DNA of 64,000 nt from an uncultured delta proteobacterium. Its GTDB lineage: Bacteria; Myxococcota_A; Polyangia; Polyangiales; Polyangiaceae. The number at the start of each line of letters is the position of its first letter. The stretch's first letter is position 1. This document shows, one piece after another, positions 17,953 to 25,109 of the stretch. The translations under genes and the position numbers were made by a program. The notes beneath the pieces are model-generated. The model did no database searches. It had not been told where the DNA came from and worked only from the letters and a program-made list of their open reading frames with translations. The stretch lies in assembly GCA_963841435.1 (NCBI GenBank), contig CAWJCS010000006.1, positions 32,001 to 96,000 of the forward strand, given 5' to 3'.

Positions 17953-19057
17953 ATGGCGCAGCCGAACGACGAGGAGCTCGACGCTTCCAGCTTCGACCCG
18001 ATGGCGAAGCCGGTGCGGCCGCGGCTCCTCGCCGTGCGCCAGCCGCTCTCGCCGCGAGCGAGCGCCCTCACCGGAGTGTTCGCGTTCCTCGTGCCGCTCG
18101 CGCTCTGGTGCATCGTCAGCTACGTGCCCTTCGTCTGGCACCCCGCCGTGCTCGTCACCGACGCGGGGGACACCAGCGTGCCGGGCACGTACTCGTACGT
18201 CGCGGAAGGGCAGCTCGTCGACAAGGAGGTCTTCGCCGCCCGCAACCAGGAGCTTTTGGCGAAGGGTGCGCGCCCCGCACGAGGAAAACGCTCGAACCCG
18301 ATCTACTTGCAGCCGCCGCACGCCGTCGCGCGCGCACTCTACACGGCGTTCACGACGCCCCCCGAGGGTCTGGGTGACGTTCTGGTTCCACGAGAGCCTA
18401 TGGCGGAGCTGCCAGGTCATCTTCTGGGGCTTCTTCTGGTCGGCATTGCTCGGCGTTCCGCTCGGCATCCTGTGCGGCACCTTCTCGCTGTTCTCGAGGT
18501 TGTTCGAACCGTTCGTCGACTTCGTGCGCTACATGCCCGCGCCCGTGTTCGGCGCGCTCGCCGTGACGGTGCTCGGTCTCGCCGACGAGCCGAAGATCGC
18601 CATCATCTTCATCGGCACCTTCTTCCAAATGGTGCTCGTCGTCGCGAACACGACGCGCTCGGTCGACGTGCAGCTCTTGCACGCCGCGCAGACGCTCGGC
18701 GCCAAGAACGTGAGGCTCGTCACGTCGGTCGTGATTCCAGGCGCGCTGCCAGCGCTCTACCGCGACATGCGCATTCTCATCGGGTGGGCCTGGACCTACC
18801 TCGTGGTTGCCGAGCTAATCGGCGAAAAGTCGGGGCTTTCGGCGTTCATCTACCAGCAGCAGCGCTACCGGCACTTCGACAACGTCTATGCCGCGATCGC
18901 CATCATCGGCATTGCGGGGCTCGTCATCGATCAGCTGCTCGCGTTCCTCGGGCGCCATATTTTCCCCTGGGAGAGCGGCAACACCAAGCTCCTGCGCCTG
19001 GCACGCGGCTTTCGGCGTGTGCTGCCCGGGGGTCTGGCGCCGGCGCGTGCCGCCTGA
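17953..19057 (+). CDS. ABC permease (NitT/TauT family), with a one-base frameshift at ~18380
   Basis: N-terminal half in one frame; [25 protein letters not shown] (EAA-loop), [11 protein letters not shown] in the next frame. Confidence 0.85.
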
Positions 19058-19068
19058 GGTCCCCGAAC

Positions 19069-19935
19069 GTGCGCGTCGACGACCAGCTTTCACTGCCGAG
19101 CTATCTCGATCACCCGCCGGAAACGACGGCGCGCATCGCCGAGCTCGCCGCGCGGCCCGTCGTGATGAGCGTCGAGGCGCTGACACGCGACTTCGAGAGC
19201 CCGGGCGGGCAGCTCGTGACGGCGCTGTCGCGCATCACCTTCGAGGTGAGAAAGCGCGAGTTCATCAGCGTGATTGGGCCGTCGGGCTGTGGCAAATCCA
19301 CGTTGATCCGCATTCTCGCAGGTCTCGACTATCCGACGAGCGGCGAGGTGCGGCTCGACGCGCGCCCCGTCGTCGGTCCCGGCGCCGATCGCGGCATGGT
19401 GTTCCAGGGTTACACGCTCTTTCCCTGGCTCACCGTGAAAAAGAACGTGATGTTCGGCCTGAAGATGAAAGGCGTGTCGGGCGCCCGGGCCGACAAGATC
19501 GCGCGCGACTGGCTCGAGATCGTCGGGCTCGGCGGCGTCGCCGACCAGTACCCCTCCCAGCTCTCGGGCGGGATGAAGCAGCGCGTCGCCATCGCGCGCG
19601 CCCTGGCGAACGAGCCGCGCATCATGCTCATGGACGAGCCGTTCGGCGCGCTCGATGCGCAGACGCGCGCGAGCATGCAGGCGCACCTCCTCCGGATCTG
19701 GGAGCAGGTGGACGTCACCGTGCTTTTCATCACGCACGACCTCGACGAGGCGGTGTACCTGTCCGACCGGATCGTCGTCTTGGGCGCGAATCCGGGTCGG
19801 ATCCTCGAGATCATCGACGTGCCCGTCGCCCGCCCGCGCCGACCCCAGCAGTTCCTTTCGGGGCACTTTTTGGCCACGAAGAAGCGCCTCGAGGAGCTGA
19901 TCCACCGACCCGAAGCCGCCGCCCCCGCTGCCTGA
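19069..19935 (+). CDS. ABC ATP-binding protein (NitT/TauT family)
   Basis: [31 protein letters not shown]. The start codon is approximate. Confidence 0.92.
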
Positions 19936-19994
19936 GTCGCGCCATCGCCGAAACCCGCGCGAAACACGCGCACTTTATGCTCCAGCCTCGGCTC

Positions 19995-20070
19995 GACCGG
20001 GACGACCCGGTCCGTCCCGGTCGCGGCTCGCCGCACCGGGTTGCAAGGGCCGTGGCCGGGACGACCCGGC
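19995..20070 (+). ncRNA. Guanidine-II (mini-ykkC) riboswitch with an extended, structured linker
   Basis: Two GC-rich hairpins with ACGA tetraloops: GACCGGG-ACGA-CCCGGTC (19995-20012) and GCCGGG-ACGA-CCCGGC (20055-20070), ~50 nt upstream of the cgdA start. Confidence 0.85.
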
Positions 20071-20117
20071 ATCGAATCGCCGGGGCTCCGCCAAAGCCTC
20101 GGTAAAGGAGCCCGTCG

Positions 20118-20852
20118 ATGCCGATCGAGCGACGAACAAGCGAGCCGGGCGCGCCGCTCTACACAGAGCTCTTGCGCGGCGGACAGATGTGGTCACGCGT
20201 GCTCTCGCGGGGCGAGCGGCTGAAGCTCGTCAACGTCGAGGGCGGGGCGACGGCGGCAGCATTGCTGTTCAACGCGGTGTCGCCCCTCGAACGCTACAAC
20301 ATGCCCGACACGCTCAAGGCGCAGCACATCGCGCGCCTGACGACCGACACCGTCCTCTACTCCGACATGGGCTGCGTGCTCTGCTCGGTCGTCGCCGACG
20401 ACTTCGGCTGGCACGACACCATCACGGGACACATGACGCGTGCGGCCTCCGAAGGGAAATTCGGGCCTGGCAGCTACCAGGAGCTTCGCAACGACTTTTA
20501 CCGCAACACCCGTGACAACTTCCTGATTGAGCTCGGCAAGCACGGGCTCGGCAAGCGTGACCTTCATGCCAACGTGAATTTCTTCGTCAAAGTGGTGGCC
20601 GACCTGGAAGGGACGCTCTCATTTTCGAAGAACGAGCGCCCGGGAGCGAGCGTCGAGCTGCGCGCCGAGCTCGACGTGCTCGTCGTGCTGTCGAACACGC
20701 CGCACCCGCTCGACCCTTCAGCGCGCTACGCGCCGAAACCCCTCGGGGTCGAGATTCGCGCCGGGCTCCCTGCCGGGCCCGACGATCCTTGCCGGCGTTC
20801 GTGTGCCGAGAACGAGCGCGGCTTCACCCTCACCGAACGAGCGGCGAGCTAG
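20118..20852 (+). CDS. cgdA: Urea-carboxylase-associated protein 2 (DUF1989) = carboxyguanidine deiminase subunit
   Basis: ERYNMPDTLKAQH, LYSDMG, GWHDTITG, NVNFF, SNTPHPLDP; SD AAGGAG. Confidence 0.85.
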   Translation: MPIERRTSEPGAPLYTELLRGGQMWSRVLSRGERLKLVNVEGGATAAALLFNAVSPLERYNMPDTLKAQHIARLTTDTVLYSDMGCVLCSVVADDFGWHDTITGHMTRAASEGKFGPGSYQELRNDFYRNTRDNFLIELGKHGLGKRDLHANVNFFVKVVADLEGTLSFSKNERPGASVELRAELDVLVVLSNTPHPLDPSARYAPKPLGVEIRAGLPAGPDDPCRRSCAENERGFTLTERAAS

Positions 20853-20861
20853 GAGGCAACG

Positions 20862-21503
20862 ATGACGCTCAAGGAAAGCCGTCTCGAGCCCGCCCGCGCC
20901 ATCTTCGACGAGATCGTGCTTTCGGGCACGGGCTTCAGCCGCCTCATTCACCATGGGCAGACGCTGCGCATCGTCGACCTCGAGGGCAACCAAGCGGTCG
21001 ATACGCTATTTTACGACGCCCACGAGCGCAGCGATCGCTACAGCGCGGTCGATACCATCCGCGAGCAGGGCAACATCTACCTCACCACGGGGTCGCGGCT
21101 GATTTCGACCGAAGGCAACCTGCTGCTCACGATCGTGGCGGACACTTGCGGTCGCCACGACACGCTCGGCGGTGCATGCGCCGCGGAGTCGAATCAGGTT
21201 CGCTACGCCATCGAAAAGAAGTTCATGCACAACTGCCGCGACACGTTCCTGCTCGAGATTCAGGAGCGTCTGTCGCCGATGGAGAAGCGGGACATCACCC
21301 ACAACATCAACTTCTTCATGAACGTGCCCGTCACGCTCGAGGGCGGACTGCGCTTCGAGGACGGCATTTCGGCGCCGGGCCGCTACGTCGAGCTGTTCGC
21401 CGAGCGGGATGTCACGGTCTTGATCTCGAATTGCCCGCAGCTCAACAACCCCTGCAACGGCTACGACCCGACCCCGATTCGCATCCTGGTCTGGGACGCG
21501 TAG
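20862..21503 (+). CDS. cgdB: Urea-carboxylase-associated protein 1 (DUF1989) = carboxyguanidine deiminase subunit
   Basis: [59 protein letters not shown]. Confidence 0.88.
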
Positions 21504-21517
21504 CCCGGAAGCGCGCC

Positions 21518-24500
21518 GTGTTCTCGAAGGTTCTGATCGCCAACCGCGGCGAAATCGCCTGCCGCGTGCTCGCGACGCTCCGGCGGCTGGGCGTGAGAAG
21601 CGTGGCGATCCACTCCGAGGCGGACCGCCACGCTCGCCACGTGCTCGAGGCCGACGAGAGCGTCTGCGTCGGGCCGCCGCCCGCGCTCGAGAGCTACCTC
21701 GACCAGCAGGCCGTCCTCGAGGCGGCGCGACGCACGGGCGCCGAGGCCGTCCACCCCGGTTACGGCTTTCTATCGGAGAACGCCCAGTTCGCCGAACGGG
21801 TGGAGGCGGCGGGGCTCACGTTCGTCGGACCCACTCCCGCCCAGATCCGCCGCTTCGGCACCAAGCACGGCGCGCGAGCGCTCGCCCGCCAGCTCGGCGT
21901 CCCGCTCTTGCCGGGCACCGGGCTCGTTGCCGAGGTCGCGGATGCCGAGCGCGAGGCTCTGCGCATCGGATTCCCGCTCATCGTGAAGAGCACGGCGGGC
22001 GGCGGCGGGATCGGCATGCAGGTGTGTCGCGAGCGGAGCACCCTCGCCGACCAGTTCCGCTCGGCACGCGCGCTCGCCGAGAAGAACTTCGGCGATGGAG
22101 GCCTGTTCCTCGAGCGCTTCGTCGAGCGGGCGCGGCACGTGGAGGTGCAGATCTTCGGCGACGGCACGGGCCGCGTCATTGCGCTCGGCGAGCGTGATTG
22201 CTCCGCGCAGCGCCGGCACCAGAAGGTGATCGAGGAGACGCCGGCCCCGCGCCTGACCGAGGACGCGCGCGGCGCGTTGCTCGAGCGGGCGGTCGCGCTC
22301 GGTCGCGCCGTCAGCTACCGCTCGGCCGGAACGGTCGAGTTCGTGCTCGATGACGAGTCGGGCGAGTTCTTCTTTCTCGAGGTGAATACGCGCTTGCAAG
22401 TCGAGCATCCCGTGACGGAAGAGGTCACGGGAGTCGATCTCGTGGAGTGGATGCTCAAAGTCGCCGCGGGTGATGCGCTCGAGCTCGTGGCGCCGCAGGC
22501 GAGCGGCCATGCCGTCGAGGTGCGCGTGTACGCCGAGGACCCCGAGCGCGGGTTCCGGCCGAGCGCGGGGCTGTTGACGGAGGTGTCGTTCCCTCCGGGG
22601 GTGCGCGTCGACACCTGGGTCGGCGCGGGTACGGAGGTGCCGCCTTACTACGATCCGATGCTCGCCAAGATCATCGTCCACGGCGCCGATCGCGAGCAAG
22701 CGCTCGCCCGCCTGTCCGCGGCGCTCCACGCCACCGAGCTCGGCGGCATCGAGACGAACCTCCGGTATCTGAGAGCGCTCGTCGACGCGGAGGTCGTGCG
22801 CTCGGGGCTGATCGTCACGAGCACGCTCGCGAGCTTCCGCCCGCCGAGCCTGAGCGTCGAGGTGCTGTCGCCGGGCACGCTGACGACGATCGCAGGATCA
22901 CCCCGGGCGCCTCGGCTACTGGGCGATCGGCGTGCCGCCGTCCGGGCCCATGGACGCTCGTTCGATGCGCCTCGCCAACCGGGCCGTCGGCAACGTCGCG
23001 GGAGCGGCCGCGCTCGAGATCACGGTGTCGGGCCCCACCTTGGTCTTCGCAACGGACGCCGTGGTCGCGCTCGCGGGCGCTCCGATGCCGGCGACGCTCG
23101 ACGGCGCGCTCGTCTCCTACCTCGAGCCCGTCCGTGTCCGCGCGGGCCAGAAGCTCGCCATCGGCTCGCTCACGGGCCCCGGCTGTCGCGCCTACCTCGC
23201 CGTGCGACACGGCTTCGACGTGCCGGCCTACCTGGGCAGCCGCTCGACGTTCACACTCGGCGGCTTCGGCGGCCACGGGGGCCGGGCCCTCCGCAAGGGC
23301 GACGTTTTGCACGTCGCAAAGAGCGGCTTCACCGACGGCGAGCCCCTCCGTCTCGACCCTCGGCTCGCGCCCGAGCTCGGCGACCACTTCACGATCGGAG
23401 TGCTCTACGGACCCCACGGTGCGCCCGACTTCTTCACGCCTCGCGACATCGAAACCTTCTTCGCGACCGACTGGGAGGTCCACTACAACTCGGCGCGCAC
23501 CGGCGTGAGGCTCGTCGGTCCGAAGCCCGAATGGGCCCGCCCTGACGGCGGCGAGGCGGGCCTCCACCCCTCGAACATCCACGATGTCGCCTATGCCGTC
23601 GGCACGGTGGACTTCACGGGTGACATGCCCATCGTGCTCGGCCCCGACGGACCGAGCCTCGGGGGTTTCGTGTGTCCCGCGACGATCGTCACGGGCGAGC
23701 TCTGGAAGCTCGGGCAGCTCCGGCCCGGCGCTCGCGTTCGCTTCGTGCCCATCGCGCCTGCGCAGGCCGCGCGGCTCGAGCACGCCGAGTCCGAGGCGAT
23801 CGCAACGCGGCGCCCGGTCGCGCCCGAGCCGCTGGCGTTCCAGATGCCCGAGCGCGCCGTGCTCCGCGAGCTCGGCGAGACCCAAGAGCACCCCAGCGTC
23901 TTTTACCGGCCGGCGGGCGACGGCTCTCTGCTCGTCGAATACGGCCCGCTCGTGCTCGACCTCGCACTGCGCTTTCGCGTGCACGCGCTCATGCAGTGGC
24001 TCGGCGCCGAGCGCGTGCCGGGTATCATCGACGTGACGCCCGGCATCCGCTCACTGCAGGTCCACTACGATCCGACCGAGCTCGGTCTCGCGAAGCTACT
24101 CGACGTGCTCGGGCACGCCGAGAGCGAGCTCCCCGTCGTCTCGAGCATGAAAGTGCCCACGCGCACCGTGCGGCTGCCGCTGTCGTGGGAAGACCCCGCG
24201 ACGCTGCTCGCCATCGAGAAGTACATGCAGAGCGTCCGGCCCGACGCCCCCTGGACGCCGAGCAACCTCGAATTCATTCGCCGCATCAACGGGCTCGACT
24301 CGATCGAGGACGTGCGCCGCATCGTGTTCGACGCGAGCTACCTCGTGCTCGGGCTCGGTGACGTTTACCTCGGCGCGCCCGTCGCCACGCCCGTCGACCC
24401 GCGGCACCGTCTCGTGACCACGAAGTACAACCCCGCGCGCACCTGGACGCCGGAAAACGCCGTGGGCATCGGCGGCGCCTACCTCTGCATCTACGGCATG

Positions 24501-25109
24501 GAGGGTCCGGGCGGCTACCAGTTCGTGGGGCGCACGCTGCAGGTCTACAGCCGCTTTTTACGCAGCCGCTACTTTACCGATCGCGAGCCCTGGCTGCTCA
24601 GGTTCTTCGACCAGATCCGCTTTTACCCGGTCGGCGCCGAGGAGCTCCTCGAGATGCGTGACGCCTTCCTCCACGGCAAGGTGGAGCTCGACATCGGCGA
24701 GGAGGTGTTCTCGCTCGCCGACTACCAGGGCATGCTGGGCCGCGAAGCCGACAGCATCGCGAGCTTCAAGCGCACGCAGCAAGCGGCGTTCGACGCCGAG
24801 CGGCAGCGCTGGGCCGAAGCCGGCGTCGCGTCGTCGCCCGTCGAGGTCGCGGGCGAGCCCGAGGAACGGCCTCTCGCACAGCGTCACCCCGGGGCGGAGC
24901 TCGTGGAGAGCCACGTTCACGGGAGCGTGTGGCAGCTCCGGGCCGAGGTCGGGCAGCGGGTGGCGCGAGGCGACACGCTCGTCGTCTTGGAGTCGATGAA
25001 GATGGAAATCGCGATCGAGGCGACGATGGAAGGCACCGTGGTGGAGCTCTGCGTGAGCGAAGGTCGTGCCGTGACCCCCGGGCAAGCGCTCCTCGTGGTG
25101 CGCCCATGA
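21518..25109 (+). CDS. uca: Urea/guanidine carboxylase (biotin carboxylase + carboxyltransferase + biotin carrier), with a one-base frameshift at ~22892
   Basis: [63 protein letters not shown]...[22 protein letters not shown], biotinyl site ESMKM. Confidence 0.93.

Follow-up and report, generated by a model that had tools for sequence, protein, structure and literature searches.

The DNA examined here, hereafter the window, is a stretch of 64,000 nucleotides from an uncultured delta proteobacterium of the family Polyangiaceae (GenBank assembly GCA_963841435.1, contig CAWJCS010000006.1, positions 32,001 to 96,000 of the forward strand). Immediately in front of its guanidine-breakdown genes, the first of which is cgdA, lies a leader with two ACGA-capped hairpins, P1 and P2, separated by a linker that itself folds. 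Judged by its sequence, this element is a genuine guanidine-II (mini-ykkC, RF01068) riboswitch, and the conserved novelty in it, according to the comparisons below, is the linker hairpin P1a together with the flanking helix P0, which make it a structured-linker form of guanidine-II. The components of the leader, including the Shine-Dalgarno (SD) sequence, and the genes that it precedes are as follows.

19989 to 19994, + strand: 5' strand of P0, CGGCUC, pairing with 20047 to 20052 when P1 and P2 are enforced in the fold
19995 to 20012, + strand: P1, sensor hairpin 1, 7 base pairs (bp), GACCGGG-ACGA-CCCGGTC, read from the sequence and re-derived by script
20013 to 20054, + strand: linker between P1 and P2, 42 nucleotides (nt), from the sequence
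20013 to 20022, + strand: the "decoy" CGTCCCGGTC, from the sequence, found in the window only
20013 to 20043, + strand: P1a, the linker hairpin, CCCGGU (20016 to 20021) and ACCGGG (20035 to 20040) around GCGG-CTCG-CCGC
20047 to 20052, + strand: 3' strand of P0, GGGCCG, inside the conserved linker-tail motif (A)GGGC, from alignment, folding and swap test
20055 to 20070, + strand: P2, sensor hairpin 2, 6 bp, GCCGGG-ACGA-CCCGGC, read from the sequence
20067 to 20075, + strand: 5' strand of the putative start-codon helix, CGGCAUCGA, made up of the final 4 nt of P2 and AUCGA, complementary at 9 of 9 positions to 20115 to 20123
20079 to 20084, + strand: GCCGGG in the spacer, identical to the P2 5' strand
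20083 to 20113, + strand: spacer hairpin, stem GGGCUCC (20083 to 20089)/GGAGCCC (20107 to 20113) over the SD sequence GGAG (20107 to 20110), complement exact, z = -1.9
20115 to 20123, + strand: 3' strand of the putative start-codon helix, UCG-AUG-CCG, start codon at 20118 to 20120
20118 to 20852, + strand: cgdA, first regulated gene, DUF1989/UAAP1, carboxyguanidine-deiminase subunit type (PF09347, 177.5 bits; TIGR03425, 300.6 bits against a cut-off of 205.95)
20862 to 21503, + strand: cgdB, second DUF1989 gene, UAAP2 (TIGR03424, 327 bits against a cut-off of 284.7)
21521 to 25109, + strand: urea/guanidine carboxylase, split over two frames (TIGR02712 positions 1-463 in one frame, 474-1200 in another)

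The hairpins, the linker, the complementarities and the GCCGGG copy listed in an initial annotation of the window were all found to be exact when re-derived from the sequence by script. The tetraloops, at 20002-20005 and 20061-20064, cap the 7-bp and 6-bp stems, and GGGACGACCC, present in both P1 and P2, provides the two G-C pairs that close each tetraloop; such pairs are included among the 16 conserved nucleotides of guanidine-II given in passages of PMC5558903. P1a can be extended past a U-U mismatch by C20013-G20043 and G20014-U20042. The SD sequence is situated 37 nt past P2 and the cgdA ATG, at 20118, 47 nt past the riboswitch. The leader has a G+C content of 76-80% and is rich in CCGGG/CCCGG words. 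The core GGGACGRCCC occurs in three copies in the 64-kb window, compared with 0.78 expected, a number reached by 5 of 100 shuffles, and two of the three copies stand 49 nt apart, immediately 5' of cgdA. The fold of the 141-nt leader has z = -5.2, with equally good folds in 0 of 200 shuffles. Moreover, P1, P2 and the linker hairpin recur in relatives, and are therefore not a product of chance.

An allophanate hydrolase gene also lies downstream in the operon, and genes for an ATP-binding cassette (ABC) substrate-binding protein and an ABC ATPase lie upstream of the leader. This gene set is the guanidine-assimilation set described in passages of a review (PMC12186494), where operon-internal guanidine-II riboswitches are already recorded. 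The two carboxylase frames meet at a single surplus base near 22892 (acg atc G cag gat cac; window positions 22880-22900), which reflects either a fault of the assembly or a genuine frameshift.

Of 24 congeners sampled, 22 carry a cgdA homologue. When the 47 genomes of the genus were all scanned, 28 matched the pattern and 25 matched R1, a covariance model built with the proposed structure; these tallies, like the order-level one below, include genome G046, on which none of the sequence-based claims depends. The long-linker form was found in the genus as 10 instances in 9 of the 47 genomes, window included, with linkers of 39-44 nt. At this locus there is also, in congeners, a short-linker form whose hairpins stand 10-17 nt apart. 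A stricter pattern, with the 3' side of P1, CCG, P2 and the next A kept constant, was applied to soil-metagenome contigs and gave 22 further long-linker leaders. One record with a long-linker leader, L052, is the metagenome-assembled genome of a Polyangiaceae bacterium, consistent with Myxococcota. Removal of six exact duplicates and one leader ending at a contig edge left 25 distinct leaders. In all of these, an SD sequence and an ATG follow P2 by 45-59 nt and open an in-frame cgdA-type open reading frame (ORF) with an RGG.MWS motif. At the level of the order, 41 of 401 genomes gave a pattern match; the matches listed from outside the genus are mostly repeats or coding sequence, with no long-linker cgdA form among them.

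P1a is present in all 25 leaders. Its first base is one of the five that follow P1, being the first or the second of these in 22 leaders; its end lies 9-14 nt ahead of P2, and its stem sequences differ. When all leaders were realigned with R1, 9 of the 11 P1a pairs were observed to change on both sides, with 87.5% of cells paired. The seven pairs of P1 were 100% paired, one of them covarying, and the six pairs of P2 were invariant, partly since the search pattern required them. P1a holds nine of the 11 covarying pairs of the whole four-helix structure, whose covariation score of 0.307 compares with 0.142 for shuffled alignments (reached in 0 of 500) and at most 0.077 when the partners were slid. 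In partner-swap tests on raw segments, P1a strands paired with their own partners at -15.7 kcal/mol compared with -10.6 kcal/mol for swapped ones, a difference reached in 0 of 20000 trials both with the 25 leaders and with nine clade representatives. The z-scores of single linkers were weak (-2.25 to +0.18; -0.15 in the window), so that the case for P1a is made by comparison across sequences and not by single-sequence stability. With R1, the window scores 76.1 bits and the other leaders 64.5-99.5 bits. It can be seen from these alignments that P1a is conserved in structure, not in sequence. The reading of the element as a guanidine-II variant with an inserted, folding hairpin, put forward in the initial annotation, is thus borne out by a structure kept in 25 distinct related leaders. 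The further expectation that both the hairpin and the decoy would be conserved in related genomes holds for the hairpin and fails for the decoy, whose complementarity amounts to 3-7 nt in the other 24 leaders.

Support for P0 is moderate, as judged from alignment and folding. In this helix the 4-8 nt before P1 (GCCU, CGGCUC or GCCC) pair with the linker tail (GGGC, GAGCCG or GGGU). P0 was predicted by RNAalifold on a structure-blind MAFFT alignment, with one pair reading UA in 11 leaders, CG in 6 and UG in 4 and the next pair CG in 19, UA in 3 and UG in 2. Of the 25 minimum-energy folds of single sequences, 16 contain it, and in the partner-swap test its own pairing was reached in 0 of 20000 trials with the 25 leaders and 79 of 20000 with the nine clade representatives. 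Through this pairing of 5' flank and linker tail, a three-way junction of P0, P1 and P1a would form, with 2-5 free nucleotides between P0 and P2. The short-linker form carries the same GCCU...GGGC complementarity with a small bulge, so that the long form reads as one in which a hairpin was inserted in that bulge. In the guanidine-II literature, searched through listings and passages, no description of a structured-linker or three-way-junction form was found, and nothing was found that pairs guanidine-II with Myxococcota.

At the gathering cut-offs, no Rfam model has a match in the window, RF01068 with its 32 bits included. The Rfam covariance search proposed in the initial annotation recovers the element in part, since two partial matches of 18.9 and 16.4 bits are returned under relaxed settings, both below the cut-off. 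The 16.4-bit match is P1 alone, and in the 18.9-bit match the linker hairpin is mistaken for "P1" and joined to the true P2. The long-linker insertion is the cause of this failure. In the same genus, the cut-off was passed by 11 of 11 short-linker homologues (35.4-44.5 bits) and by 0 of 9 long-linker ones. The linker, 42 nt in the window and 35-44 nt in the subclass, lies marginally beyond the published 7-40 nt, which is a descriptive range and not a functional criterion (Sherlock et al. 2017, as cited in PMC5558903, a source that calls the linker variable or "random"). Over the window's own genome, RF01068 gave 11 sub-threshold matches and none above the cut-off, and the pattern scan and R1 located only one riboswitch there. 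Homology to the canonical form is indicated by the locus, flanks and hairpin sequences, which are common with canonical members in sister species; furthermore, R1 also picks up short-linker forms, at 37-48 bits.

The region between P2 and the SD sequence is hypervariable except for two islands, A-Y-CGA directly after P2 and UCG-AUG at the start codon. CGAUG does not vary among the 25 leaders, and the U before it hardly does. The segment CGGCAYCGA is complementary to UCGAUGCCG at 9 of 9 positions in five leaders, including the window, at 8 of 9 in 18 and at 7 of 9 in two. When downstream partners of the P2 3' strand were searched for without bias, the best one overlapped the AUG in 17 of 25 leaders. 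In four leaders, two of them with a 9/9 helix, the two states are nearly isoenergetic (-1.1 to -1.7 kcal/mol). As the start-codon helix excludes P2, locking of P2 by guanidine should free the start codon, an ON response. In the proposed mechanism, guanidine would stabilise the loop-loop complex of P1 and P2, and P2 would thereby be locked. In its absence, the P2 3' strand and the next five bases would pair with UCG-AUG-CCG, and the start codon would be hidden. The translation of cgdA, cgdB, guanidine carboxylase and allophanate hydrolase would be controlled in this manner. In the window only, a 10-nt duplicate of the P1 3' half could additionally capture the P2 5' half, and the OFF fold is strongly favoured there in the folding model. 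These pairings suggest an ON switch rather than an OFF switch, which would agree with the known behaviour of the family and with a catabolic operon. OFF-type behaviour had been raised from naive pairing logic in the initial annotation, and the sole alternative pairing kept in 25 of 25 leaders, that of the P2 3' strand with the start region, predicts the opposite. Taken together, a functional long-linker guanidine-II riboswitch with a P0-P1-P1a junction, acting as a start-codon ON switch and carrying a lineage-specific duplication in the window, is considered the probable reading.

A number of observations weigh against this reading. The start-codon helix never varies and so offers no covariation, and part of it is coding (AUG, CCG); at the P3 pair next to the invariant CGA/UCG, no consistent covariation was found in alignment A1, whose core is invariant and thus uninformative on the point. 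In 20 of 25 leaders the P2-formed state is favoured without ligand by 2.8-11.9 kcal/mol, so that the proposed OFF state would be rare there. The accessibility of the SD sequence did not change consistently when P1 and P2 were enforced (mean 0.33 compared with 0.31), and in both modelled states of the window it is covered by the GGGCUCC/GGAGCCC stem. The OFF fold of the window, stabler by 9-11.6 kcal/mol, is likely beyond what ligand binding could pay back unless folding is kinetically controlled. With regard to the alignments, the R1-fitted one (A3) leans towards the proposed structure, and in it only one of the four P0 pairs changes on both sides. The invariance of the P1 3' side, the CCG, P2 and the A next to it is partly by construction, because these bases were required by the search pattern, and GGGACGACCC, likewise invariant in the 25 leaders, was in part required by the patterns too.

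The decoy, the anti-SD stem and GCCGGG are, in the comparison of leaders, singletons of the window's genome. The decoy is the exact reverse complement of GACCGGGACG (19995-20004), the P1 5' half and loop, and is also complementary, with one G-U, to the P2 5' half and loop. It is a tandem copy, 9 of 10 positions identical, of CGACCCGGTC (20003-20012), the P1 3' half. The match of 10 nt to the P1 5' half and loop in the window compares with the 3-7 nt noted above for the other leaders. In the minimum-energy fold, the decoy region 20013-20029 pairs with 20047-20063 and takes the P2 5' half, not P1, so that the pairing over P1 suggested in the initial annotation is replaced in the model by one with P2, and the complementarity itself is a single observation. 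The start-codon helix forms in this same fold. The probability that P2 is formed is 0.00 in the window versus more than 0.9 in 16 of 24 relatives in the folding model, and enforcing P1 and P2 in the window costs 9.0 kcal/mol. From the presumed transcript start, the OFF fold lies at -90.0 kcal/mol and the aptamer fold at -78.4 kcal/mol, a gap of 11.6 kcal/mol, with a heuristic refolding barrier of 19.4 kcal/mol. The anti-SD stem does not extend to the relatives either. Over the 14 nt preceding the AUG, exact complements reach at most 7 nt in the window and 3-5 nt, mostly CGAG/CUCG, in the relatives, which carry a hairpin at that position but not an anti-SD. GCCGGG, proposed as a competitor for the P2 3' strand, has its spacer copy in the window only among the 25 leaders. 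The 10-nt duplication is read here as a presumed by-product or tuning peculiar to this lineage and as no part of what defines the class. The subclass contains another, independent mimic in the metagenome leaders L191 and L194, whose linker tail CGACCGGGTGA copies the P1 5' strand and displaces P1 in the folding model (P(P1) = 0.00).

The same window-only features admit a different account, in which the decoy works and the leader is a multi-state switch. In the absence of guanidine the decoy would capture P2, as in the model, or P1, as first proposed, and the anti-SD stem and GCCGGG would add further states, giving a bistable or kinetic device with a raised guanidine threshold. The exactness of the complementarities speaks for such a switch, as does the contrast in P2 formation between the window and its relatives. 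In addition, the decoy-P2 and start-codon helices combine into one coherent OFF fold, whose energy gap and barrier are as expected of a kinetic switch; a linker-P2 pairing has a precedent in E. coli sugE; and the P1 5'-strand mimic of L191 and L194 arose independently. Nevertheless, none of the 24 other leaders has the decoy, a 7-nt anti-SD or the spacer GCCGGG, and the decoy is explained by the tandem duplication. Extra complementarities are cheap in a leader built from repeated CCGGG/CCCGG words, and selection on the leader may be relaxed, given that the carboxylase gene is apparently frameshifted. The multi-state switch is thus regarded as doubtful. A broader proposal, that long-linker guanidine-II is a distinct unannotated class whose junction pre-orients P1, with a toggle between P2 and the start helix and with the window as a bistable kinetic switch of higher guanidine threshold, is likewise held to be rather doubtful.

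Sequestration of the SD sequence by the 5' flank was also weighed. Here the P0 5' strand would be the anti-SD without guanidine, and in the bound state the flank would be locked in P0 and the SD sequence freed. In a model for P. aeruginosa, outlined in passages of PMC5558903, the anti-SD is placed in the linker and the P1 5' end; in L155/L181 a duplex of -16.8 kcal/mol joins the flank CGAGCCGCCU to GGAGGCGAGCUCG; and in the window GGCUC (19990-19994) faces GAGCC (20109-20113). An initial swap test, run on 12-nt flanks against 21-nt targets, also looked positive (15 of 5000). This early result vanished with tighter segments (flanks of 10 nt and the 16 nt that precede the AUG), for which 2438 of 20000 trials with the 25 leaders and 4036 of 20000 with the clade representatives were not significant, and the 5' flank was rejected as an anti-SD candidate. 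Moreover, the best duplex covers at least three of the four SD bases in 8 of 25 leaders only, and most duplexes are weak (-5 to -9 kcal/mol), which makes this explanation improbable. Finally, the riboswitch of this genome could be a non-functional relic in a decaying operon, with P2 locked away by the duplication. The apparent +1 frameshift near 22892 and the 9-11.6 kcal/mol by which the OFF fold is favoured would fit such decay, but the frameshift could be an assembly error, the R1 score of the window is within the range of the others, and P0, P1, P1a, P2, the SD sequence, the start-codon complementarity and both DUF1989 frames are intact. A relic is therefore very improbable, and the functional long-linker ON switch is retained as the preferred reading.

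Comparison with RF01068 members (E. coli sugE/gdx, P. aeruginosa, Gloeobacter violaceus) shows that the window likewise has two ACGR hairpins before guanidine-regulon genes, and translational ON control by guanidine-dependent loop-loop pairing would be expected in both (passages of PMC5558903 and PMC12186494). The window differs from them in its 42-nt linker, most of which is a conserved hairpin and the remainder paired with the 5' flank to give the three-way junction, and in its SD sequence, which lies 37 nt after P2 instead of adjoining it. The closest relatives of the long form are the short-linker "type A" leaders of congeners (for example L165 and L157). Both forms lie between an ABC-transporter ATPase gene and cgdA, and both have the GAAAC-N6-GAAAC motif, the GCCU...GGGC complementarity of flank and tail, and near-identical P1 and P2. 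In contrast, type A has a linker of 10-17 nt without a hairpin and passes the Rfam cut-off; its expression platform is also different, as P2 lies 84-96 nt from the start (in L165, L178 and L183, where the first in-frame start is the real one) and UCGAUGCCG is absent. The window form resembles a type A leader that acquired a hairpin behind the CG on the 3' side of P1.

Long linkers are also found elsewhere. A pattern scan of the whole collection gave at least 119 loci, to be taken as examples and not a census, of which 46 pass a stem filter, most of these being repeats. Among the matches listed, seven leaders have linkers of at least 32 nt, namely L036 from Pseudomonas (36 nt), L065 from Achromobacter (33), L072 from Enterovibrio (50), L082 from Caenispirillum (32), L091 from Thauera (40), L125 (43) and L136 (57). 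As with the window, several of them hold linker hairpins, the minimum-energy folds of L082 and L091 display a P0-P1-P1a three-way junction, and all seven miss the RF01068 cut-off. All seven precede guanidine-regulon genes (SMR/Gdx five times, biotin carboxylase once and BTP once). Unlike the window, they have unrelated linker sequences and stand mostly before exporter genes, and each was examined as a single sequence. The predicted decoy-P2 pairing of the window, an alternative to kissing, is similar to the "M" conformation of E. coli sugE, in which, according to passages of PMC9094411, P2 is unfolded and paired with the linker in an 8-bp rearrangement seen in simulations and by single-molecule fluorescence resonance energy transfer at high Mg2+. 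The helix of the window differs in that it is about 17 bp long, predicted, and enabled by a local duplication. As PMC7544219 and PMC9094411 indicate, debate continues over the way in which the two hairpins signal to the expression platform and over whether kissing takes place inside a single molecule.

Guanidine-II is the smallest guanidine riboswitch, and the structured-linker subclass provides natural experiments on its linker geometry. Since Rfam misses the window, 9 of 9 tested long-linker leaders of the genus and 7 of 7 from other phyla, guanidine-responsive genes are under-annotated, and long-linker guanidine-II leaders are recovered by a model of the R1 type. The decoy of the window is a possible example of a small duplication that retunes or breaks a riboswitch.

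Further upstream, one more feature was recorded.

19950 to 19981, + strand: upstream motif, GAAAC (19950-19954), N6, GAAAC (19961-19965) and TATGCT (19976-19981), seen by eye

The upstream sequences of the 25 related leaders also show, on inspection by eye, the arrangement GAAAC-N6-GAAACA-N~10-TAnnnT-N~11-P1; a few copies are degenerate, with GAGAC in L155/L181 and GAAGC in L198. Probably the motif is a promoter inside the operon together with a direct-repeat site for a regulator, and it would place the transcript start near 19988. A scan of the upstream region with the sigma-70 consensus gave no promoter. The repeats resemble the GAAAC half-sites of OmpR-type nitrogen regulators. A terminator-like hairpin, GCGCGAAACACGCGC followed by ACTTTATGCT (19957-19971), was returned by a consensus scan; it overlaps the second GAAAC and its T-run is weak. 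No terminator was found between P2 and the start codon. The ABC ATPase ORF (17953-19935, 660 aa) has its ATPase domain only at residues ~405-647, and the N-terminal 400 residues may be a permease fused to it, or the ORF may have been called too long, the DNA being rich in G+C.

During the scans, L221 (G423:C18), an apparent long-linker case, was rejected as a regularly spaced repeat array (...GCTCACCCCCACGTGCGTGGGGACGAC...), probably of the CRISPR (clustered regularly interspaced short palindromic repeats) type, and scans for ACGR hairpins can pick up repeats of this kind as false positives. In six congeners (G041:C95, G011:C915, G042:C199, G045:C160, G051:C20 and G001:C424), another locus was observed to carry a second guanidine-II riboswitch of the short-linker form (linker ...GGGCATCTGCC...). 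In seven congeners (L014, L015, L016, L020, L023, L026 and L031) the ABC ATPase gene abuts cgdA with no riboswitch in between, and in L021 and L022 an ACGA hairpin is located ~260 nt upstream instead, so the position of the riboswitch within the operon varies inside one genus.

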